Source: a virus
Length of the DNA stretch: 16,081 nucleotides
Direction: 5' to 3' (one strand)
UHGV virus genome: UHGV-1809260
Part shown: piece after piece, positions 3,412 through 14,066 of the stretch
Layout of the letters: each line of letters begins with the position of its first letter
Position numbering within the stretch: position 1 is the stretch's first letter
Program-made: the position numbers and the translations under genes
The notes under the pieces: model-generated
Databases searched by the model: none
What the model saw: the letters and a program-made list of their open reading frames with translations, nothing else
Told to the model about the DNA's origin: nothing

Positions 3412-4227
3412 TCAGTGAACGGTATCGAGCAGCTTTAACAGCTCAGGGAATCGGGATTCGAAGAAATGCGGCTGCGTCTCGCGCGGATTTGCAGGACTGG
3501 TGATGTTCTTGCCGAACATGCAGCCTTTCGCTGTCAGCGACCAGAATTTTTTGATGTTGTTAATCGCGGTACGGCTGTATCGTTCGCGTTGTTCAACGAT
3601 CCCCAGCTTCGCCATCTGGTGATATGCCTGATTAGCCGTCAGGCGGATACCATACTGCTTCAGCAGTGCACTCAGCGACAGCGTAGGGCGGCTTGAACCA
3701 TCTGGCGCATCAGCAGGTGCATCAATGGCATAGATCGGCATAAGTTCAGGAAGACCAGCTACCTTTGATAATTTCTGGTATGCACCAAGTTTCGAGGAGT
3801 TTGACAGATTTAGAGTCTTTGCTGCTGATTCAAGCAGAATGACCCCGGATTTAATTTTGTCGGATGTGGTTTCTTCTGGTGATGAATTATGAAGCGCATC
3901 AAAAGTACGTATCACTTTTAAGCTGAATGCCGGGCTGATCCACATTGCATATGCATAGACCAGCTCTTTACAGACATACGTCCCACCATTGCGCCCCTGA
4001 ATGGTGATGACAGGAATACTACGGGAATCTCCCGTAGTTTCTTCTTCCAATAATTCCACAAGAGCCTTCGTTTCAGGACGACGCATAAACTCGTGAACTT
4101 CCAGCGAACGGGAGGAGCGATTCTCACCAGCGGCAAGAAGAGCAGCTTTCTGAAGGTCGTTAAGACAGTAGTTAGATTCGAAGTACTGGCGCACAGAAAC
4201 GCCATCAATTACAAGCAACTGATTCAT
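3412..4227 (-). CDS. KilA-N-like domain protein (antirepressor-like)
   Basis: ORF 3412-4239; preferred start is the ATG at 4227 (MNQLLVIDG...), preceded by GGAGA; the track start at 4239 is GTG. N-terminal segment with WISPAFSLKV resembles KilA-N/APSES-type DNA-binding domains (recollection only). Confidence 0.55.
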   Translation of the reverse strand: MNQLLVIDGVSVRQYFESNYCLNDLQKAALLAAGENRSSRSLEVHEFMRRPETKALVELLEEETTGDSRSIPVITIQGRNGGTYVCKELVYAYAMWISPAFSLKVIRTFDALHNSSPEETTSDKIKSGVILLESAAKTLNLSNSSKLGAYQKLSKVAGLPELMPIYAIDAPADAPDGSSRPTLSLSALLKQYGIRLTANQAYHQMAKLGIVEQRERYSRTAINNIKKFWSLTAKGCMFGKNITSPANPRETQPHFFESRFPELLKLLDTVH

Positions 4228-4389
4228 TGGTTTCTCCACAAATTTTTATCCACGAGCGGGACTGCACTCCCTTTTCGTTGATGCAGGATGAACTTACTGC
4301 GATTTTTAATAGTTATCAAGGATACACTGTTCATAAATACAGTATCTTTAACGAGGTAATACCCAAATTTAGGGTGTTGCTCAATTCCG

Positions 4390-4785
4390 TTACCGAGTTG
4401 CTAATTTGCAACTCGCTTTTTCGTACTTACTGATAGTGATCTCGACCTTCCCTTCCGGGATAACCGGTCCCCACTCCACCAGCATTCTTTTCACCTGGCT
4501 GTCGTCTTCCCACACACCCGCGTGGGTCAGGGCGTCAAACAGCGCCTTGTTATAGTTGTCCAGATCGCGGATCCGGTTATCCGGAGGAAACAACACGATC
4601 TCCACTGAAGCAGGTGCCGACGTTGGTTTCGGCAGACGACGTAACTGCTCAACTATTGCTGCACACGCCGCGCTCTGGAATTTTCGCCCCGCCGCGCTTA
4701 TCAGGCTCTTACCAGCAAACGCCCCTTTGTTAGGGTGTCGCCAGTACGTGTTCACGCTGGGCGGAAAAGGCAGTATTAGCTTCAT
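4390..4785 (-). CDS. rusA: Holliday-junction resolvase RusA
   Basis: 131 aa; MKLILPFPPSVNTYWRH...RDLDNYNKALFDALTHAGVWEDDSQV matches the conserved RusA pattern (PPS-N-YxRH...RDLDN...A.FDAL...DD.QV). Start ATG overlaps the upstream stop (ATGA). Confidence 0.85.
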   Translation of the reverse strand: MKLILPFPPSVNTYWRHPNKGAFAGKSLISAAGRKFQSAACAAIVEQLRRLPKPTSAPASVEIVLFPPDNRIRDLDNYNKALFDALTHAGVWEDDSQVKRMLVEWGPVIPEGKVEITISKYEKASCKLATR

Positions 4786-5108
4786 ACTTTCAGGCCCCTC
4801 TCATGTAACCAGTGGGTTGCACGCAGCCTTGCGTTTTCCTCACCGGCAAGCAGTGCGCGGATAATCCCGACCGCCTCGCTGTCGTCGTCCTTCATCGCAG
4901 TATGAAGCGTTATCCCCCGGGCCACGCCACGCTTTATCGTGATGACGCCTTTTTTCTCCAGTGCGCGAAGATGCTCCACCGCTGCATTCACCGAACGGTA
5001 TCCCAGCATGGTTGCCACCTCCTGATTGGTTGGCGGGAAGCCACGTTCTTTCTGATAAGAAATCAGCATATCCAGCACCTGCTGCTGGCATTGAGTTAAT
5101 GTCGTCAT
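4782..5108 (-). CDS. LexA N-terminal DNA-binding-domain-like protein lacking the S24 peptidase domain
   Basis: 108 aa; LTQCQQQVLDMLISYQKERGFPPTNQEVATMLGYRSVNAAVEHLRALEKKGVI parallels the LexA winged-helix domain. No Ser/Lys peptidase module follows. ATGA overlaps at both ends. Confidence 0.7.
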   Translation of the reverse strand: MTTLTQCQQQVLDMLISYQKERGFPPTNQEVATMLGYRSVNAAVEHLRALEKKGVITIKRGVARGITLHTAMKDDDSEAVGIIRALLAGEENARLRATHWLHERGLKV

Positions 5109-5758
5109 GCCGCCATCTCCCTGACCAGTTTTTCCGCCTGCTGGCGAGCCTGCGCCAGAAATGCCTCACCACATGCCTCAAGTTCATCGCGCCCGATGTA
5201 GCTGATTGCCGCTCCCTTCCAGGTCTTGTCGAAAACAGCAATAGCACCAGCGAAGAAAGCACCTGTTGGCACCTGCTTTTCGTCTTTCGGGATAAACCAG
5301 GCTGGCAGTTCAAAACCAATACGCCCGCGAATAAAAGCAATATGATCTGCATCTTCCGGCCACCACACTTCGCTGGTGGCCGCTTTGATCAGGAAAACAT
5401 AGCGCCCGCCTTTATCACGCATGGCACTGGCATGCTTCATGATGTAACGCATGCCGGTGATGTATTGTCCCTCATGCTGACTGGCGCGGCTGTACGGGGG
5501 ATTACCAAAGGCAGCACCTTTAAGCTCCGCAAGACGTTCTGACCAGTCATGTGCCAGCGCGTTGTCTTCCGCCGTGTAATACGCGGCACATTTGGCGTTA
5601 TCACCGTCAGTAAACAGATCCAGAACAAACGGGCCAAACAGGGTGTTAATTCCCCAGAAAATGTTGTCCGGCGTGCGCCACTGATCGCCCACTTCCTTCA
5701 GTTCATGGGCTGGTTTGTTCCGTAGTTCCACCAGCGCCTGGCAATATTTATTACTCAT
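5105..5758 (-). CDS. Phage DNA N6-adenine methyltransferase (Dam-like)
   Basis: FGNPPYS catalytic motif IV (NPPY) within the 228-aa ORF. Preferred start is the ATG at 5758 (MSNKYCQ...) with GGGGG Shine-Dalgarno; the track start at 5791 is GTG. Confidence 0.85.
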   Translation of the reverse strand: MSNKYCQALVELRNKPAHELKEVGDQWRTPDNIFWGINTLFGPFVLDLFTDGDNAKCAAYYTAEDNALAHDWSERLAELKGAAFGNPPYSRASQHEGQYITGMRYIMKHASAMRDKGGRYVFLIKAATSEVWWPEDADHIAFIRGRIGFELPAWFIPKDEKQVPTGAFFAGAIAVFDKTWKGAAISYIGRDELEACGEAFLAQARQQAEKLVREMAA

Positions 5759-6246
5759 TAAGCCCCCACGTAATTCCCTGACAGATACCACTCATCACCC
5801 GCTACAGCGCGCTTTCTGCTTTTCCGTAAGCACCGCTCACGACGCGCCAGAAAATTGTTTCGTTCTGGCTGGGAGTGGCTTTCACGGAATGCCGCCATCC
5901 ACACGGTTGCAGCACGACGGTATAAGCCCCTGGACTCCAGTTCTTCCGCCTGGCGGGTCAGGCACAAAATCACCCGGGGATCGTTAGTGCCGACATAGAA
6001 ATTGCGCACAGGTATGGTTTCAAGAACAGGTTGCAGTTTCTCCTCCTGCGATATCTCAGCCTGGTGTGGGAAATGTCTGCGTGTTTTCCCTTCACAACAG
6101 TGAGCCACACGGCCACTCTGACGTAACTTGCTTGCTGACTGCAGAACGCACTGTCGTGAGTAACCAGCAAAAGCATCCGCAATGTCACCTGAAGTACACC
6201 CCGGATGGGCTTCAATGAATTTCTGTACATCGTTCATCAGACTCAT
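5758..6246 (-). CDS. Hypothetical regulatory protein, possibly PerC/ANR-like
   Basis: ORF 5758-6252; preferred ATG at 6246 preceded by GGGGG. C-terminal LTRQAEELESRGLYRRAATVWMAAF resembles the motif of PerC-family small regulators (recollection, low certainty). Its stop overlaps the methyltransferase ATG (TAATG). Confidence 0.5.
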   Translation of the reverse strand: MSLMNDVQKFIEAHPGCTSGDIADAFAGYSRQCVLQSASKLRQSGRVAHCCEGKTRRHFPHQAEISQEEKLQPVLETIPVRNFYVGTNDPRVILCLTRQAEELESRGLYRRAATVWMAAFRESHSQPERNNFLARRERCLRKSRKRAVAGDEWYLSGNYVGA

Positions 6247-6248
6247 GA

Positions 6249-7232
6249 TCACCCCCTGAATCCTGTCGGGATCTGGCTGTAGTCCACGTTGTCGTAACTG
6301 GCTTTGAAGTACGGGTCCTCGCGTCTGGCTGCAGATACCGCAGGAACTTCCCAGGATTCTTCGAAATGACGATCCGGACCAAAGAACGTGACAGCCTGTT
6401 TCACAAATTGTGTGCCGCTATTGCCCATCGCAGATACCCAGCCCGCGTAGCGTTTCACACCTTCCAGCATGGTTTCGGGGTTTACCCCCTCGTTCAAACG
6501 GGCTTTCCAGGCTTTGAAGGCTGCTGATTTTGAATTGCCACCAGCACGTTTGGGATATTCCTGCCAGGCCTGTTCAAATTCCGGTGAATATTCCTGTCGG
6601 GCAGAACGCGCTGGCGCAGACGCGTCAGCGGATGCATCAATAGTGTTTTTAGTCTCCGTTGTAATCTCTGTAGTAATCTCTGTATTTGTATCAACATTCG
6701 GCGTATCCCCTGTTCCGTTATGACGTCGGGGGGTGTTCCGTTTTAACGTAATAGCTGTATCGCTGATTGCATTATTGCTGTTACTTTCTGGCGAAACAGA
6801 AGAAGGTGTGGTGATGGCCGCAATTGCCTGTGGGTTGATCCCGACAAACAAAATATTGCTGCATTTCACCCCATCGAGCATTTCCACCGTGCGTAAATCC
6901 AGAGTAATAAACCCTGCATCGCGCAGACGCTTCAGCGCATCTGCGGTTTCCCTTTTCCCGAAACCAAACTGCTCAGCAAACGCCTGGTAGCTTCTTTGCA
7001 GTTTGTCGCCCTGAAAACGCTTGCGATATCCCAGCAACGCTCCGGTGTGCTCATCCCTGACCTCTGTCGGGCGGTACCAGTAAACGATCTCTGAAAGCAG
7101 AGCGATAGCCGTCGCATCCGGACGCCCACTGGGTAGTCGAATATATTTCCACCAGGTCGCAGGTGTAACATTGCCGGAAATATTAATTTGACCAATAGCC
7201 ATAACTTCCGGTGTGGGGGCGTAACGGCTCAT
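6249..7232 (-). CDS. Phage replication initiation / replisome-organiser protein (O-like; YdaU/DUF1376-like C-terminus)
   Basis: 327 aa with perfect AGGAGG Shine-Dalgarno 4 nt upstream of the ATG at 7232. Has a winged-helix-like N-terminal region, a low-complexity linker (TEITTEITTE, DASADASA) encoded by tandem DNA repeats, and a conserved-looking C-terminus (EFEQAWQEYPKR...FKAWKARL). Confidence 0.65.
   Translation of the reverse strand: MSRYAPTPEVMAIGQINISGNVTPATWWKYIRLPSGRPDATAIALLSEIVYWYRPTEVRDEHTGALLGYRKRFQGDKLQRSYQAFAEQFGFGKRETADALKRLRDAGFITLDLRTVEMLDGVKCSNILFVGINPQAIAAITTPSSVSPESNSNNAISDTAITLKRNTPRRHNGTGDTPNVDTNTEITTEITTETKNTIDASADASAPARSARQEYSPEFEQAWQEYPKRAGGNSKSAAFKAWKARLNEGVNPETMLEGVKRYAGWVSAMGNSGTQFVKQAVTFFGPDRHFEESWEVPAVSAARREDPYFKASYDNVDYSQIPTGFRG
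6661..6684. repeat. Tandem 12-bp iteron-like repeat inside the replication gene (candidate origin)
   Basis: GTAATCTCTGTA occurs twice in perfect tandem (6661-6672, 6673-6684), flanked by partial copies (ccgttgta; tttgta). This is analogous to lambda ori iterons lying inside gene O. Confidence 0.4.
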
Positions 7233-7528
7233 ACAACCTCCTTCCGCAGCATGAGAATTGTGTAGCCACGCGCAGGTTGTAGTCTGGCTTTTGCATCAAT
7301 AGTAAGCGTTGCAATTTTTCGGATATGAAGATAACCAGCTCTTTCCAGTGCCAGGGTTTCCCTGAATATCGCTTGCTTAGAACAACAGCAGAAATCAGCA
7401 AGCACCTGATGATCAATAACTCTCTCGCCTTCACCGTCTGAAGAACCCGACATCAAAACGCGCAACATAATCAGGCGCTGAATCGGGTTATCGAAAGCAC
7501 ATCCGCACACAAACTGAAAACAGTTCAC
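7229..7528 (-). CDS. Small helix-turn-helix-like protein (99 aa)
   Basis: GTG start at 7528 preceded by GGGAGG with a 6-nt spacer. Segment VLADFCCCSKQAIFRETLALERAGYLHI looks like a helix-turn-helix. Stop overlaps the replication gene start. Confidence 0.6.
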   Translation of the reverse strand: MNCFQFVCGCAFDNPIQRLIMLRVLMSGSSDGEGERVIDHQVLADFCCCSKQAIFRETLALERAGYLHIRKIATLTIDAKARLQPARGYTILMLRKEVV

Positions 7529-7749
7529 GCCACACCTCCCAGACGCTTAAACATTTTTCCGGAGCAAAAGGCTATAAGCGGCATACTGACGCGGTAATTA
7601 CGGCCCAGCGGTTCACAAATCACCTTCTGACATTCACGGTCAACCAGGCTAACACGTAGAACATGCCCTGCAGGCGTGGTGTACCACTGACCCGGACGAG
7701 GACAACGGAAAGTCTGATTGGTAAAACGTTTGAAAATATTCCGGATCAT
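7525..7749 (-). CDS. Hypothetical small protein (74 aa, four Cys)
   Basis: ATG at 7749 preceded by GGGGG with a 5-nt spacer; GTGA/ATGA overlaps with both neighbours. No family recognised. Confidence 0.55.
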   Translation of the reverse strand: MIRNIFKRFTNQTFRCPRPGQWYTTPAGHVLRVSLVDRECQKVICEPLGRNYRVSMPLIAFCSGKMFKRLGGVA

Positions 7750-8897
7750 TTGCGCCCCCTTGCCTCTGAAGGGTTCAGCGACAAATTTATGAGGCAGGCC
7801 AGCGCCGAAGCATCATTAATATAGTCATATAAGCTAACAGCCAGCGGAGATTCGGCTTTTGCCAACATAGGATAAAGCTGCTGCAGCCAGACCTGATGAA
7901 TTGATGAAATGTAGGAACAGAGAACGCTGGCGTTATGTGCAACGTCGCTCGGTACAGCAGGCTTTGAAAGCTGTTTCTCCATCTGGTTAAAGGCATTGAT
8001 GTATGCCTCTTTGAACTTGGCAGCACGTTTACCCGTGAAACCCATAGCAAGAAACGCAAAACCGTCGCGGGTGATTTGGTAACAAGGGAGTTTGCGGCCT
8101 GATGCGTCGGTGTATTCACTTAACACAAAAATGTGTTCAGTAAATTCAGCGGAACATTCGAGGTTTCTAATTCTATCTAAAACCCGCTCATGCCGTTTAG
8201 TAAAGTAATTAGCTACTGCAAGAGATGTGGTGACAACGCGACCATTGATAATCGTGATTTCAGGGTGAGATTGGGTTGGGAGAGTAGTCATGGTGACAGC
8301 CCCTATGTTGAATTCAATGAACTCACCACCAAGGCTTTCCACGACCATATAGGTGGTGAGACGTACAGGGGTGGAAATACCGGTCAACATAGAACCCGGC
8401 CCAACCGAAGTTGGCCCTGCACGCCCCACCATAATTTGGGCGTAACGATGCTCATGACACGAAAAAACCGCATGAGCGCGGTTGTGCTCTATATTGAATT
8501 TCGGGTTTCCACGCCCGGCACCCGCTTTATAAGGTGCCGGAACAGTGTAACGTCCCGGAATTGCAGAATCAATATGCTGGTGTTCCTTCACACTCAACAA
8601 AATCACGCCTGAATTTCCACAAAGGACTAAAGCACTCATGCGGGTAGTCTTTGCGAAGATAGATAACGCGCTGTGTTTCTGGCTCCCAACGAATAACATG
8701 GACATAAAGCCCTCTTCCGTCACGAAACCAGCGGTTAAGTTCCTGCACAACTCGCCCCCCACAGTCAGGTAAAGTTCTCTGTGGTTACTTACAGCCAGGT
8801 GATTTGGTAATCTGCATTCATGCCGTAACAACAGGTGTTCAGCGACGCTGACCACCAGCTGTTGCGACAAACGGTTATTTGCCGTTAAACTGTTCAT
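7746..8897 (-). CDS. Rha-family phage regulatory protein with an unusual ~200-aa N-terminal extension
   Basis: Residues ~203-305 (MTTLPTQSHPEITIINGRVVTTSLAVANYFTKRHERVLDRIRNLECSAEF...) match the Phage_pRha pattern. The frame stays open upstream to the ATG at 8897, which overlaps the upstream stop (ATGA) and has a GGAGA site. An internal ATG at 8291 also has an AGGGG site. Confidence 0.65.
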   Translation of the reverse strand: MNSLTANNRLSQQLVVSVAEHLLLRHECRLPNHLAVSNHRELYLTVGGELCRNLTAGFVTEEGFMSMLFVGSQKHSALSIFAKTTRMSALVLCGNSGVILLSVKEHQHIDSAIPGRYTVPAPYKAGAGRGNPKFNIEHNRAHAVFSCHEHRYAQIMVGRAGPTSVGPGSMLTGISTPVRLTTYMVVESLGGEFIEFNIGAVTMTTLPTQSHPEITIINGRVVTTSLAVANYFTKRHERVLDRIRNLECSAEFTEHIFVLSEYTDASGRKLPCYQITRDGFAFLAMGFTGKRAAKFKEAYINAFNQMEKQLSKPAVPSDVAHNASVLCSYISSIHQVWLQQLYPMLAKAESPLAVSLYDYINDASALACLINLSLNPSEARGRK

Positions 8898-9770: not shown

Positions 9771-9840
9771 ACCTTTCTCCTCTGAAATTCAGAGGGATAA
9801 TGCTACTTAAAATAGCAAATTGCAACTACTTAAAATAGAA
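9771..9840. promoter_or_regulatory. Divergent PR/PRM-like promoter-operator region
   Basis: Two copies of CTACTTAAAATAG (9803-9815, 9826-9838) within 17-bp near-palindromes (TGCTACTTAAAATAGCA at 9801-9817). Separate palindrome CCTCTGAAATTCAGAGG at 9779-9795 overlapping the cro ribosome-binding site. Candidate PR on the minus strand: -35 TTGCAA (9820-9825), 17-bp spacer, -10 CATTAT (plus-strand coordinates 9797-9802). Confidence 0.5.
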
Positions 9841-10581
9841 ATGACTAGCGCGTGCGATGTGAGTAATCTTCTACCTATGGTAGAAGAACAGAAGTATCCA
9901 GATTTCGCCAAGAGACTAAACGAATTGATGACAATCAAAGGAATCTCTGTCACTCAACTCAAAAGTCTTGTGGGCGTTACATATGAAATGGCTCGTCGAT
10001 ACACAATCGGCGCAGCGAAGCCACGTGTCTCTGTCATGAGTAAACTTGCGTTGGCTCTTGGAGTATCAGCTTCATATCTAGAATATGGTGTTGGAGATAG
10101 AGAGGAATGTAAGGAAATGGCAAGCATCCCCAATCCAACAAAGCCCGATGTATACAGGATAGAAGTTTTGGATCTTAGCGTTAGCGCAGGACCTGGGACC
10201 TATATGCTTTCAGACTATGTTGATGTGCTCTACGCCATTGAGTTCACAACTGAACATGCCCGTTCTCTTTTCGGAAACCGTTCTCAGAATGATATAAAAG
10301 TTATGACGGTAAATGGAGATAGTATGTCCCCAACTCTTGTTTCCGGGGATCGATTGTTTGTCGACATTTCCGTTCGCCACTTCCAGACTGATGGAGTTTA
10401 CTCTTTCGTTTACGGTAAGACTTTCCATGTTAAACGTCTACAAATGCAAGGCAACAAACTAGCTGTTCTTTCGGATAACCCCGCCTATGAGAAATGGTAC
10501 ATTGATGAGAAGTCGCAAGATCAGCTTTATGTTATGGGTAAGGCACTGATTCATGAGTCGATTAAATATAATCGACTTTAA
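9841..10581 (+). CDS. cI-like prophage repressor (N-terminal HTH plus C-terminal S24 LexA-type autopeptidase)
   Basis: HTH segment ISVTQLKSLVGVTYEMARRYTIG; Ala-Gly cleavage site (SVSAGPG); catalytic Ser in VNGDSMSPT and Lys in FHVKRL. The track start at 9820 is TTG; I prefer the ATG at 9841, with 9877 as an alternative. Confidence 0.85.
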   Translation: MTSACDVSNLLPMVEEQKYPDFAKRLNELMTIKGISVTQLKSLVGVTYEMARRYTIGAAKPRVSVMSKLALALGVSASYLEYGVGDREECKEMASIPNPTKPDVYRIEVLDLSVSAGPGTYMLSDYVDVLYAIEFTTEHARSLFGNRSQNDIKVMTVNGDSMSPTLVSGDRLFVDISVRHFQTDGVYSFVYGKTFHVKRLQMQGNKLAVLSDNPAYEKWYIDEKSQDQLYVMGKALIHESIKYNRL

Positions 10582-10815: not shown

Positions 10816-11901
10816 ATGATTAATGAACGTACTGAAGCGACAGATGGGGTAGCAGATATGATTTCCACCAATACAAAATATTTAGTATGGAACAACAAAG
10901 GTGGTGTAGGAAAAACTTTTCTTACATATAATCTTGCCGTTGAGTTTGCTATATCTCATCCGGATCAAGATGTTGTGGTTATTGACTCATGCCCTCAATC
11001 AAACGTTTCAGAAATTATTCTTGGTGGCAATGGTACCGGGGAAGAAAATCTAAATAAATTGCGAGACAGAAATGTTACAATCGCAGGTTATATCAAGGAG
11101 CGTTTTAGCAAATCTCCTTTGTCTCGTTTAGGAAATGAATCTTCTTACTTTGTACGAGCCCATGATGTTAATGCAAAAATGCCAGAGAACTTATATATTC
11201 TTCCTGGTGATGTCGATCTTGATATCTGTTCACGCTTAATATCTCACATTGGCTCATCCCCAGTAAAAGAAGCATGGAAGAAAAGCCGATCTTTGCTGGT
11301 AGATCTAATAGCATCTTTTGAAGCCGATAAAAACATTTCTGACAGAGCAAAAACATTTTTTATTGATTGTAATCCAAGTTTTGCCAGCTACACAGAATTG
11401 GGAGTAGTCGCGGCAAATAGAATAATTATCCCTTGCACTGCCGATGCTGCATCAATTCGCGGAATAAAAAACCTTGTTAAACTTATTTATGGAGTGTCTA
11501 TTGACAAGTCAGAACAAGATGAAATGTTCTTAGATTTCAACAAAGAAGCAAAGCAAAACCTTATCGAACTACCTGAACTACACCTTTTCGTACAAAACCG
11601 CTCAAGAACTAATGAAAGTGATGCAGCAAAAGCATTCAAATCACATGCAGAAGAGATCAAAAGAATCACGGATGACCTGTTAAATACACATCCTCATCTG
11701 TTCACAAATGTGGCTACTTTCGAGAGAGTTCAAAATGTCAAAGATGGTAATACTCTTGCAGCAATAATAAACCATGAGGGATGCCCTTTAAGTAGGCTGC
11801 AGCATAAGAGTTACACTATCTATGGTATGGCGACCCAAGCTAATAGAGCACAAATTGAAGCACTAGAATCTGATGTTTCAACAGTAGTCAAGTGTCTGTA
11901 A
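10816..11901 (+). CDS. Orphan ParA/MinD/Soj-superfamily P-loop ATPase (361 aa) in an AT-rich island
   Basis: Deviant Walker A WNNKGGVGKT, Walker A'-like VVVIDSCPQSN and Walker B-like TFFIDCNPSF. About 130 extra C-terminal residues with no recognisable family. AGGA site upstream of the ATG. No ParB-like gene adjacent. Confidence 0.8.
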   Translation: MINERTEATDGVADMISTNTKYLVWNNKGGVGKTFLTYNLAVEFAISHPDQDVVVIDSCPQSNVSEIILGGNGTGEENLNKLRDRNVTIAGYIKERFSKSPLSRLGNESSYFVRAHDVNAKMPENLYILPGDVDLDICSRLISHIGSSPVKEAWKKSRSLLVDLIASFEADKNISDRAKTFFIDCNPSFASYTELGVVAANRIIIPCTADAASIRGIKNLVKLIYGVSIDKSEQDEMFLDFNKEAKQNLIELPELHLFVQNRSRTNESDAAKAFKSHAEEIKRITDDLLNTHPHLFTNVATFERVQNVKDGNTLAAIINHEGCPLSRLQHKSYTIYGMATQANRAQIEALESDVSTVVKCL

Positions 11902-11935
11902 TACAATAACCATGATTTAGAACGAACATAATTCT

Positions 11936-11962
11936 CGCCCGACCAACAGGTCGGGTTTTATA
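11936..11962 (+). terminator. Rho-independent terminator after the ParA-like gene
   Basis: Hairpin cccgacc-aaca-ggtcggg (11938-11955) followed by tttta. Confidence 0.6.
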
Positions 11963-12189
11963 CTCGTAGCCTGCTTAATAACACTGTTCCTGACCCGTTG
12001 TATCCATAGTTCCCACTATTTTCCCCAAAATTATTACTATCTAATTAACCTAATAATTAAACCAAAACAAAAGACACTCGATATTTTCTATACGTAACTA
12101 CACCACATCCCCCCATCTGTGAAAAACCTTTTAATTCATAACGTTATATAGAAAACTAAAAATTAAATACACACTTCTACTTTTTGTTG

Positions 12190-12218
12190 TTGATTTTTGC
12201 TACTTTTAGTAGCATCAT
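12190..12218 (+). promoter_or_regulatory. OL/PL-like operator-promoter
   Basis: Perfect 17-bp palindrome TGCTACTTTTAGTAGCA (12198-12214), closely related to the OR sites. Flanking TTGATT (12190-12195) and CATCAT (12213-12218) mirror the proposed PR -35/-10 with a near-identical 17-bp spacer. Confidence 0.4.
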
Positions 12219-12239
12219 TATCTGAACAAACAACAGACT

Positions 12240-12630
12240 GTTGTTAACGAAAGGTTGGTTGTAACACGGCGTATGGCACATGCGTCGTTAGCGGTCTGGG
12301 GACGTTAAAGGGGACAATCCACTCCTTGCTCGGGCAAACAAACCAGGTAGCCGGAATGTGCAAGTCAATGATGATGCTGATAAGACGCCTAACCAGCGTG
12401 GCGATTCGGTTTGACGCTTGGGAAGAGACCAGGGTGCAACGATGAGGGCATTTATGGAGCCGCGACAAAGTGTGGTGCCGTAACTGGCTAAGTGCTCTCA
12501 GCGTTGTGGTAATCCGCGAAATGGCGCGGCGGTAAGTATGGCGGGGTTACTCTTTCCCCGTTGAGGACACCGGATTGTCAGGTTGACCATACGCCTGAGT
12601 GACAACCCCACCACAACAGCCACTGCTTTG
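12240..12630 (+). other. Long GC-rich untranslated leader (possible structured RNA)
   Basis: No plus-strand ORF longer than 25 codons between OL/PL and the internal terminator; composition contrasts sharply with the AT-rich island upstream. The listed ORFs crossing it are minus-strand or frame read-through. Confidence 0.35.
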
Positions 12631-12678
12631 GCGGTACCAGTTTGTACACTTGCTTCCGGCTGGTACCGCTCTTTTTAC
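12631..12678 (+). terminator. Strong intrinsic terminator / attenuator inside the PL leader
   Basis: Perfect 10-bp stem gcggtaccag ... ctggtaccgc (12631-12640 / 12660-12669) with a 19-nt loop, followed by tctttttac. Confidence 0.55.
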
Positions 12679-12813
12679 AAAACAGAGAAGAGCATCACCG
12701 GACGACGGGCTCATAACCCAATCCATCCGGGCGGCTGCCACCGCAGGTGTTCTTCTCTGTTTTGTGGAGAAACCAACCGACCTTTCAGGGTCGATATGAT
12801 GAGGAGCAGCAAA

Positions 12814-13176
12814 ATGGCTAGCGAACGCAGTACTGATGTGCAGGCATTTATCGGGGAGCTGGACGGCGGCGTATTTGAAACCAAAATCGGCGCAGTTCTC
12901 AGTGAAGTCGCTTCCGGTGTGATGAACACGAAAACCAAAGGTAAGGTCTCACTCAACCTGGAAATCGAACCATTTGATGAGAACCGTGTGAAAATCAAAC
13001 ACAAACTCTCATATGTTCGCCCGACTAACCGCGGCAAAATTTCCGAAGAAGACACCACCGAAACGCCGATGTATGTCAATCGCGGTGGTCGCCTGACTAT
13101 TCTGCAGGAAGACCAGGGACAATTACTGACTCTTGCCGGTGAACCTGACGGAAAACTACGCGCAGCAGGTCATTAA
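12814..13176 (+). CDS. Hypothetical early protein (120 aa), YfdP-like
   Basis: ATG at 12814 preceded by AGGAG with a 7-nt spacer (MASERSTDVQAFIGELDGG...). The longer listed ORF from 12583 is a read-through extension across the terminator. Size and position resemble CPS-53-type yfdP (recollection). Confidence 0.65.
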   Translation: MASERSTDVQAFIGELDGGVFETKIGAVLSEVASGVMNTKTKGKVSLNLEIEPFDENRVKIKHKLSYVRPTNRGKISEEDTTETPMYVNRGGRLTILQEDQGQLLTLAGEPDGKLRAAGH

Positions 13177-13241
13177 TATCGTTCTTAATTAACTGATTAT
13201 TTATCTCATCACTGAATATCTTTATATAGTGAGGACTTATT

Positions 13242-14066
13242 ATGTCTCAGAACTTAGACGCAACCGCAATTAATCAAATCCATGCCCTTATTTCTGCTCA
13301 GGGTGTTAATGAAATTATCAGTAAGATTGGTGCCGATGCTGTGGCATTGCCTGAGAATTTCCGCATTCATGATCTGGAAAAATTTAATTTAAATCGCTTC
13401 CGTTTCCGTGGTGCGCTTTCCACTGCCAGCATCGATGACTTTACCCGTTATTCTAAAGATCTTGCAGATGAAGGCACCCGCTGCTTTATCGATGCTGATA
13501 ATATGCGTGCCGTCAGTGTACTTAACCTGGGTACTATTGATGAACCAGGTCACGCAGATAACACCGCCACTCTCAAACTGAAAAAGACAGCACCGTTCTC
13601 TGCCCTGCTGTCTGTTAACGACGAGCGTAACTCCCAGAAGTCACTGGCAGAATGGATTGAAGACTGGGCCGACTACCTTGTGGGCTTTGATGCTAATGGT
13701 GACGCTATTCAGGCAACAAAAGCGGCTGCGGCAGTCCGTAAAATCACGATTGAAGCAAACCAGACCGCTGATTTTGAAGATAATGACTTCAGCGGCAAAC
13801 GCTCCCTGATGGAATCTGTCGAAGCGAAGACCAAAGACATTATGCCAGTGGCATTTGAATTTAAATGCGTTCCGTTTGAAGGTCTGAAAGAACGTCCGTT
13901 TAAATTACGCCTCAGCATTATCACTGGCGATCGTCCTGTACTGGTTCTGCGCATTATTCAGCTGGAAGCGGTGCAGGAAGATATGGCTAACGAATTTCGT
14001 GATCTGCTTGTTGAGAAATTCAAAGACAGCAAAGTAGAAACCTTTATTGGTACTTTCACCGCCTGA
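13242..14066 (+). CDS. DUF2303-family prophage protein (274 aa), YfdQ-like
   Basis: GAGGA Shine-Dalgarno upstream of the ATG. Length and sequence character match my recollection of the YfdQ/DUF2303 family. Confidence 0.7.

Follow-up and report, generated by a model that had tools for sequence, protein, structure and literature searches.

Separated from the rest of the protein, the N-terminal domain of LexA is reported to remain a repressor that binds SOS boxes and has to be cleared by ClpXP (PMC10584840), while the residues through which LexA contacts DNA have been identified as S39, N41, A42, E44 and E45 (PMC3091678, PMC13416735). The single analogue characterised in a phage is gp6 of the Bacillus tectivirus GIL01, a truncated LexA homologue of 66 amino acids (aa) that binds a palindrome of its own and activates the late promoter P3; this palindrome, GaCACAnnTGTGaC, is not a LexA box and overlaps the -35 element of P3, a promoter that is repressed by host LexA together with gp7 (PMC6182141). 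The case of gp6 demonstrates that both the binding site and the sign of regulation can change once a LexA domain has been captured. Here, we analysed a stretch of 16,081 nucleotides from the virus genome UHGV-1809260 (the window), which encodes on its minus strand, at positions 4782..5108, a LexA-like protein of 108 aa. An earlier reading of the letters alone (the sequence-only reading) had proposed that this protein acts as an uncleavable LexA mimic, which occupies host SOS boxes or phage operators during lytic growth. As detailed below, the protein is very probably a non-cleavable, sequence-specific DNA-binding regulator made in lytic development, and a full mechanism, in which it represses SOS-box-like operators and is insensitive to RecA, is put forward tentatively, as a proposal with somewhat less than an even chance of being correct.

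The LexA-like gene has already been catalogued and named and does not constitute a new kind of system. Residues 1-108 of its product match profile positions 1-106 of 106 of phrog_362, and the phage records label the gene variously as "unknown" (SfV orf42), "LexA DNA binding domain protein", "LexA-like protein" or "repressor, lexA family", while the PGAP name in Escherichia coli genomes is "LexA family transcriptional regulator". A full-text literature search found no experimental paper on the PHROG 362/SfV Orf42 family, and the label "transcriptional repressor" given to this family is annotation only. A preprint on a "bully phage" credits the cross-repression exerted by phage 1720a-02 to Cro and leaves the LexA-like gene, which is present there, unmentioned.

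A LexA-type winged helix with a family-specific tail

The open reading frame (ORF) starts with ATG and stops with TGA, and the following parts were assigned to it.

4782..5108, minus strand: LexA-like gene; ORF with matches to Pfam PF01726 (E = 2.9e-19) and, over its full length, to phrog_362 (E = 1.2e-59)
4914..5108, minus strand: winged-helix LexA DNA-binding domain, aa 1-65 (Pfam, AlphaFold2, superposition on 3jso_B)
4953..4991, minus strand: recognition helix, aa 40-52, VNAAVEHLRALEK (alignment to E. coli LexA, family column counts)
4800..4892, minus strand: family-specific two-helix tail, aa 73-103 (AlphaFold2 helices, conservation to about 40% identity)

A Pfam search of the 108-aa protein revealed LexA_DNA_bind (PF01726) over residues 1-65, corresponding to the entire 65-position profile (69 bits, cut-off 23.7), and no second significant domain, Peptidase_S24 included. 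The closest solved structures by sequence were all LexA, headed by the E. coli DNA-binding domain 1lea (E = 6e-16) and followed by 1jhh and 3jso. An AlphaFold2 model of the single chain, computed from a 20-sequence family alignment (mean predicted local distance difference test score, pLDDT, of 83.8), features a winged helix composed of helices 6-22, 28-35 and 40-52 and strands 56-58 and 66-68, after which two further helices (73-88 and 93-103; pLDDT 85-88) form the tail. Structure prediction and superposition on LexA had been named as a check by the sequence-only reading; in Foldseek, the model superposed on DNA-bound LexA (3jso_B) with a root-mean-square deviation of 0.9 Å over 68 columns at 50% identity. 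These results showed that the N-terminal domain is a LexA-type winged helix, in agreement with the earlier assignment.

Foldseek returned no match to the two-helix tail, and neither for the LexA-like family nor for its tail was a homologue with a solved structure found in the PDB. In the family alignments, the tail persists even in relatives of only about 40% identity: A97 and L101 do not vary, and hydrophobic residues occupy positions 80, 83, 86/87 and 100, a pattern compatible with two amphipathic helices. From the predicted model we infer that the tail may serve as a dimerisation or interaction module. Two LexA_DNA_bind stretches within one polypeptide of 140-350 aa were observed in P0132, P0133, P0147, P0148, P0153-P0155, P0159 and P0161-P0163, and such tandem proteins may represent covalent pseudo-dimers.

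With regard to cleavage, the 108-aa protein stops 94 residues short of the end of LexA, before the LexA C-terminal domain, and the Ser119/Lys156 dyad of the LexA S24 peptidase/dimerisation domain is not encountered in it. The claim that a Ser/Lys S24 module is missing is thus correct, with the two-helix tail found in its stead. On the LexA equivalog model TIGR00498, the protein scored 70.4 bits (cut-off 110.95) and matched model positions 1-91 of 203. A LexA-like cleavage loop within the tail, perhaps cleavable in trans, was considered as a candidate, as LLAGE stands opposite VAAGE in an alignment reaching LexA residue 86. It was rejected: the single LexA-like Ala-Gly dipeptide (A88-G89 in LLAGEE, residues 86-91) is not conserved among relatives, which show LLAKEE, LLANEE or LLVGEE, the family profile aligns to LexA only to about residue 77, and the region is predicted to be helical. 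Since both the S24 domain and a conserved cleavage site are absent, activated RecA cannot inactivate the LexA-like protein, and the immunity to RecA-stimulated self-cleavage put forward earlier is therefore upheld.

Distribution and conservation

DNA with 95-100% identity to the gene was detected in 2233 of 5426 complete E. coli genomes (about 41%), and tblastn hits were obtained in 61 phage records, among them SfV, SfII, SfIV, cdtI, mEp460, 1720a-02, Stx2a_1447 and Stx2c phages. A HMMER search further revealed relatives with 40-52% identity that span the whole protein and its tail (P0123, P0126, P0127, P0130, P0139, P0160, P0171, P0209 and P0219). As the protein is shorter than LexA and falls under the LexA equivalog cut-off, the gene might be regarded as a decaying, functionless remnant of a captured lexA. 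However, the full-length ORF is intact in 80/80 IMG/VR loci, all of them close relatives collected with the window protein as single query, and in 2223 of the 5426 E. coli genomes. Even members from several genera with only about 40% identity agree in length, tail and synteny, and the gene has a well-formed Shine-Dalgarno sequence and is translated by coupling (see below). We consider a remnant extremely improbable and, given this conservation, effectively refuted and excluded.

Gene neighbourhood and lytic context

The gene lies between two others with which it overlaps, and the cI-type repressor gene of the window is encoded on the opposite strand.

5105..5791, minus strand: Dam N6-adenine methyltransferase of phage type, upstream neighbour (PF05869, E = 6.4e-45)
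5117..5121, minus strand: Shine-Dalgarno sequence GGGAG, 8 nt 5' of the LexA-like ATG, within the 3' end of the Dam gene
5105..5108, minus strand: ATGA overlap of Dam stop and LexA-like start (plus strand reads tcat)
4782..4785, minus strand: ATGA overlap of LexA-like stop and rusA start (plus strand reads tcat)
4390..4785, minus strand: RusA Holliday-junction resolvase, downstream neighbour (PF05866, E = 6.4e-15)
9820-10581, plus strand: cI-type repressor with S24 domain

With ATGA overlaps on both sides, no non-coding DNA flanks the gene, and the overlaps indicate that its translation is coupled to that of the Dam and RusA genes, as the sequence-only reading had stated. The window represents the early part of a lambdoid prophage of the SfV/mEp460/Stx2c type, in which no tRNA genes were found. 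On the minus strand, genes for a CII-like protein, Rha/Ash, replication protein(s), a PerC-like protein, Dam, the LexA-like protein and RusA are followed, after a gap of 150 bp, by KilA-N, a 171-aa ORF, DUF968/HNH and the antiterminator Q, and the mEp460 annotation shows the identical gene order. By this order, the LexA-like gene falls into what appears to be the delayed-early (nin-type) segment of the rightward operon, a position that points to transcription from the rightward early promoter and renders its expression during lytic growth plausible. Directly 3' of cI, a ParA/MinD-like ATPase gene (AAA_31, CbiA; 10816-11901, plus strand) was observed, an unusual cargo at this place.

Comparison of eight lineages revealed a common order of replication genes, usually a methyltransferase, the LexA-like gene, RusA, KilA-N/Rha-ANT/DUF968 and Q. 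In 8/8 lineages RusA follows directly or after one small gene, usually with a 4-bp overlap, and the DNA methyltransferase found upstream in most of them belongs to either of two unrelated families (Dam PF05869 or PF00145/D12). The overlapping flanks together with the conserved position in all eight lineages fit a trans-acting factor whose target lies away from the gene.

The same neighbourhood could also be explained if the protein were no transcription factor at all, acting instead as an accessory DNA-binding or DNA-bending protein that assists or targets RusA or the upstream methyltransferase. The lambda nin region offers a parallel, as the small DNA-binding protein NinH is encoded there next to the junction resolvase Rap/NinG. 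However, RusA and methylases occur without a LexA-like gene in the close relatives ST64B (sb44-sb45) and phiNP, the methylase is absent from the contexts of P0130 and P0139, and lambdoid nin gene order is conserved for many unrelated genes. In addition, the base-contacting residues kept in the protein suggest sequence-specific recognition, and we thus regard an accessory function as improbable.

SOS boxes in the window and its relatives

Potential targets were searched for with a position weight matrix (PWM) of the LexA box, which was built on 20 E. coli operator sequences that were not drawn from a curated table. Three main types of box were found among the 80 IMG/VR loci, namely the window-type box (21 loci), a cI-internal box (22 loci and 4 near-variants) and a methylase-start box (20 loci).

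4325-4344: canonical SOS box CACTGTTCATAAATACAGTA in the rusA/KilA-N intergenic region (4240-4389); perfect CTGT-N8-ACAG, 21.3 bits
12522-12541 of mEp460 (L001): cI-internal box of mEp460-type immunity regions, TACTGTATGTAAAAACAGTA
start of the DNA methylase gene that lies 3' of Q (box within its first codons): methylase-start box, CACTGTTTATTTTTACAGTA

The box of the window scores at about the middle of the sites on which the PWM was trained. On the minus strand it reads TACTGTATTTATGAACAGTG, and the KilA-N gene (3412-4239) begins some 85 bp downstream of it, which suggests that a KilA-N or antirepressor-like gene in the nin region may be under SOS control. A consensus scan of 4100-6400 returned no promoter-like site of at least 9/12 for this box, and the only candidate recognised by eye was TTGAGC-17-TATTAC (8/12). 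Among the phage records, the intergenic region 4240-4389 was found only in PhiR49_1, SfIV and VIT_AJPSC, while the 21 loci carrying the window-type box all have it at the same relative position (+764). A second perfect CTGT-N8-ACAG at 8779-8794 is located inside the Rha/Ash gene and scored below 12 bits on the PWM, and was taken as a chance occurrence. In the cI/cro operator region, no SOS-like box was found; thus, "phage operators" in the sense of OR/OL, as named by the sequence-only reading, are unlikely targets.

Across the 80 loci (1.32 Mb), 72 sites reached at least 16 bits, compared with 1.4 per Mb in shuffled sequences, which is about 40-fold above chance. Near-consensus boxes of 22.8-26.7 bits inside cI-type genes were observed in mEp460 (12522-12541), ST64B (L088, 11611-11630) and L002 (836-855). 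The conserved methylase-start box (21.5-23.8 bits) was located at 3471-3490 in mEp460 and at 20092-20111 in each of phiP27 (L089), phiNP (L090), Stx2_EH2201 (L091) and Flotzy (L092). In the Stx phages, the box-bearing methylase gene stands between Q and the tRNA/stx genes, from which it follows that host LexA may bind in the path of the late transcript upstream of stx.

Two distant lineages, L006 and L097, share an SOS box upstream of a homologous small ORF, the LexA-like gene, RusA, DUF968 and Q. The small ORF is 54% identical between the two, and the L097 copy matches phrog_1813. For L006, a promoter-like sequence (TTGCAA-17-AATAAT, 5531-5559) abuts the SOS box at 5560-5579, and a hairpin with a T-run 5' of both is terminator-like by eye only, as the scan did not call a terminator there. 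The SOS box of L097 (7561-7580) follows a terminator-like hairpin that was called by the scan (region 7476-7580), and no promoter-like site was found at this box in the scan. By analogy, the arrangement in L006 and L097 is suggestive of lexA autoregulation, and the position of the boxes implies that expression of Q may be controlled by LexA by this route. Genes for a bacterial RNase A-like toxin and a CdiI-like immunity protein were observed in L006 (3863-5232, minus strand), inserted in opposite orientation shortly before the SOS box and promoter-like site of the LexA-like operon; in L097, Cas1-like and AcrVA2-like genes adjoin each other in the late region (11794-13390, minus strand).

DNA specificity of the LexA-like family

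Alignment with E. coli LexA showed that the protein of the window keeps S39, N41, A42 and E45, i.e. four of the five helix-3 contacts, and is additionally identical to LexA at H46, K53, R64 and G65, whereas V44 stands for E44 and N28 for R28. The roles of R28 and E44 in LexA are taken here from secondary citations. The mimic proposed by the sequence-only reading is thus supported in part: the protein is uncleavable and keeps most of the helix-3 contacts, while the occupancy of SOS boxes is partly contradicted, as R28 and E44 are lost and the boxes are not specific to carriers of the gene.

Several observations, together with the uncurated origin of the PWM, weigh against a repressor acting on SOS boxes. 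A comparison of 17 LexA-like family members with 18 true LexA proteins revealed that R28 (17/18 true LexA proteins) and E44 (16/18) are replaced in 17/17 family members and that position 28 is almost random across the family. Recognition-helix positions 42, 43 and 45, invariant in true LexA, differ among its members, for example as SVNTIAGHL in the Citrobacter relative P0086 and SQNTVFIHL in P0209. A family that is unconstrained where LexA is invariant does not show the pattern expected for a strict mimic of the host SOS box, and as the SOS box is the same in all of their hosts, this variation argues for a possibly diversifying specificity and not for mimicry. P0209, which has the most diverged recognition helix, is encoded by L097, a lineage with an SOS box in front of the gene, which points to host LexA as the probable binder of that box. 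Furthermore, ST64B, phiP27, phiNP, Stx2_EH2201 and Flotzy, which lack the LexA-like gene according to tblastn and served as a gene-negative control, keep the cI-internal or the methylase-start box at homologous positions and at a similar density (7 in 0.162 Mb). A co-occurrence of SOS boxes with the LexA-like gene is ruled out by these five relatives; host LexA alone accounts for the shared boxes, which represent possible targets of the LexA-like protein but no evidence for its binding. Finally, by analogy, the characterised analogue gp6 would speak for a different palindrome and for activation.

These observations led us to consider that the domain, after capture from a host lexA, could have acquired an operator specificity of its own and act in a gp6-like manner on one or a few phage promoters, leaving the SOS regulon untouched. 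Such a regulator could activate or repress, for example, late or antirepressor-type genes. The family-wide loss of R28 and E44, the variability of positions 42, 43 and 45, the missing co-occurrence with SOS boxes, the precedent of gp6 on GaCACAnnTGTGaC and P3, and the existence of stand-alone LexA DNA-binding proteins of 65-150 aa in many phages are all in line with this explanation. On the other hand, the overlapping neighbours leave no adjacent non-coding DNA and hence no regulator-plus-operator module, although a private operator should travel with its regulator in mosaic lambdoid phages. The recognition helix of the E. coli clade, moreover, deviates from LexA at only one of the listed contact residues. 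A palindrome scan of the window gave no repeated candidate for such an operator: the perfect palindromes with 7-bp arms were terminator-like hairpins and isolated palindromes without a repeated motif, and a private operator of this form in the window was rejected. Taken together, we regard a gp6-like regulator as a credible explanation, albeit one that is more doubtful than probable.

Two palindromes of the window are recorded here as separate observations. The intergenic region 12229-12245 contains the perfect palindrome AACAACAGACTGTTGTT, in which ACAG and CTGT are placed tail-to-tail, opposite to their arrangement in the SOS box. Downstream of Q, two identical GC-rich palindromes of 20 bp, AGCCCCTCCGGAGAGGGGCT, are located at 237-256 and 724-743, 487 bp apart.

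Proposed role and significance

Returning to the RecA-proof repressor on SOS-box-like operators, the following sequence of events is conceivable. The LexA-like protein would be made after the loss of cI, when replication and recombination genes are on, and would presumably dimerise through its two-helix tail. The dimer could then bind palindromes with CTGT-like half-sites, its targets being SOS-box-like or SOS-box-overlapping operators, among them the strong phage boxes and probably some host boxes. Repression at such sites would be RecA-proof and could persist while host LexA is cleaved.

The most far-reaching version of this proposal is a surrogate LexA that re-occupies SOS boxes once host LexA and cI have been destroyed, which we consider rather unlikely. 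If it were true, the host SOS regulon and the LexA-controlled genes of competing prophages and colicins would be re-silenced, and the phage boxes upstream of KilA-N, in the interior of mEp460-type cI genes and at the methylase start would be bound. Lytic development would thereby be timed or locked in and the output of Shiga toxin influenced, and about 41% of complete E. coli genomes would hold a common, unrecognised layer of SOS control.

Any binding to SOS boxes would give a very common prophage gene the potential to dampen or remodel the SOS response at the very moment of prophage induction, with consequences for mutagenesis, for toxin release and for the way in which prophages of the same host compete. 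Carriers of the gene include Stx2c phages, some Stx2a phages and O104:H4 strains. If the protein instead recognises its own operator, it would be the second captured LexA domain to serve as a phage regulator after gp6, and the first in lambdoid phages of Gram-negative hosts. The main value of the locus lies in a very common prophage gene that is annotated yet uncharacterised and can be approached by simple experiments either way.

Comparison with known systems

The winged helix is common to the protein of the window and to E. coli LexA (TIGR00498; 1lea, 1jhh, 3jso). Unlike LexA, the window protein has no S24/dimerisation domain, is encoded by a phage and occupies a position in a lytic operon. 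The N-terminal cleavage fragment of LexA (residues 1-84) ends in VAA, which is recognised by ClpX, whereas the window protein carries its two-helix tail at this place.

The protein resembles gp6 of GIL01 in being phage-encoded, uncleavable and essentially a LexA DNA-binding domain, and the gp6 gene likewise lies among early genes, where it adjoins replication functions; gp6 differs in having no helical tail. BLASTP detected no similarity between the two proteins, and they fall into different PHROGs: the window protein matches phrog_362 better than phrog_3502 (E = 1.2e-59 vs 3.3e-15), while the reverse holds for gp6 (2.8e-5 vs 1.8e-21). Consequently, gp6 represents an independent capture from a Gram-positive LexA.

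Further stand-alone LexA DNA-binding proteins in BFVD, from Caudovirales, Tectiviridae and the Mycobacterium phage Wildcat, consist of 65-150 aa and share the protease-free winged helix. Their matches to the window protein (22-39% identity, query-normalised TM-score of about 0.55-0.6) comprise the winged helix only and leave the tail uncovered. The closest relationship is that to the PHROG 362/SfV Orf42 family, of which the window protein is a full member: it is 96-99% identical to the gene products of SfV, SfII, SfIV, cdtI, mEp460, 1720a-02 and Stx2c phages, and the order Dam, LexA-like protein and RusA is common to both.

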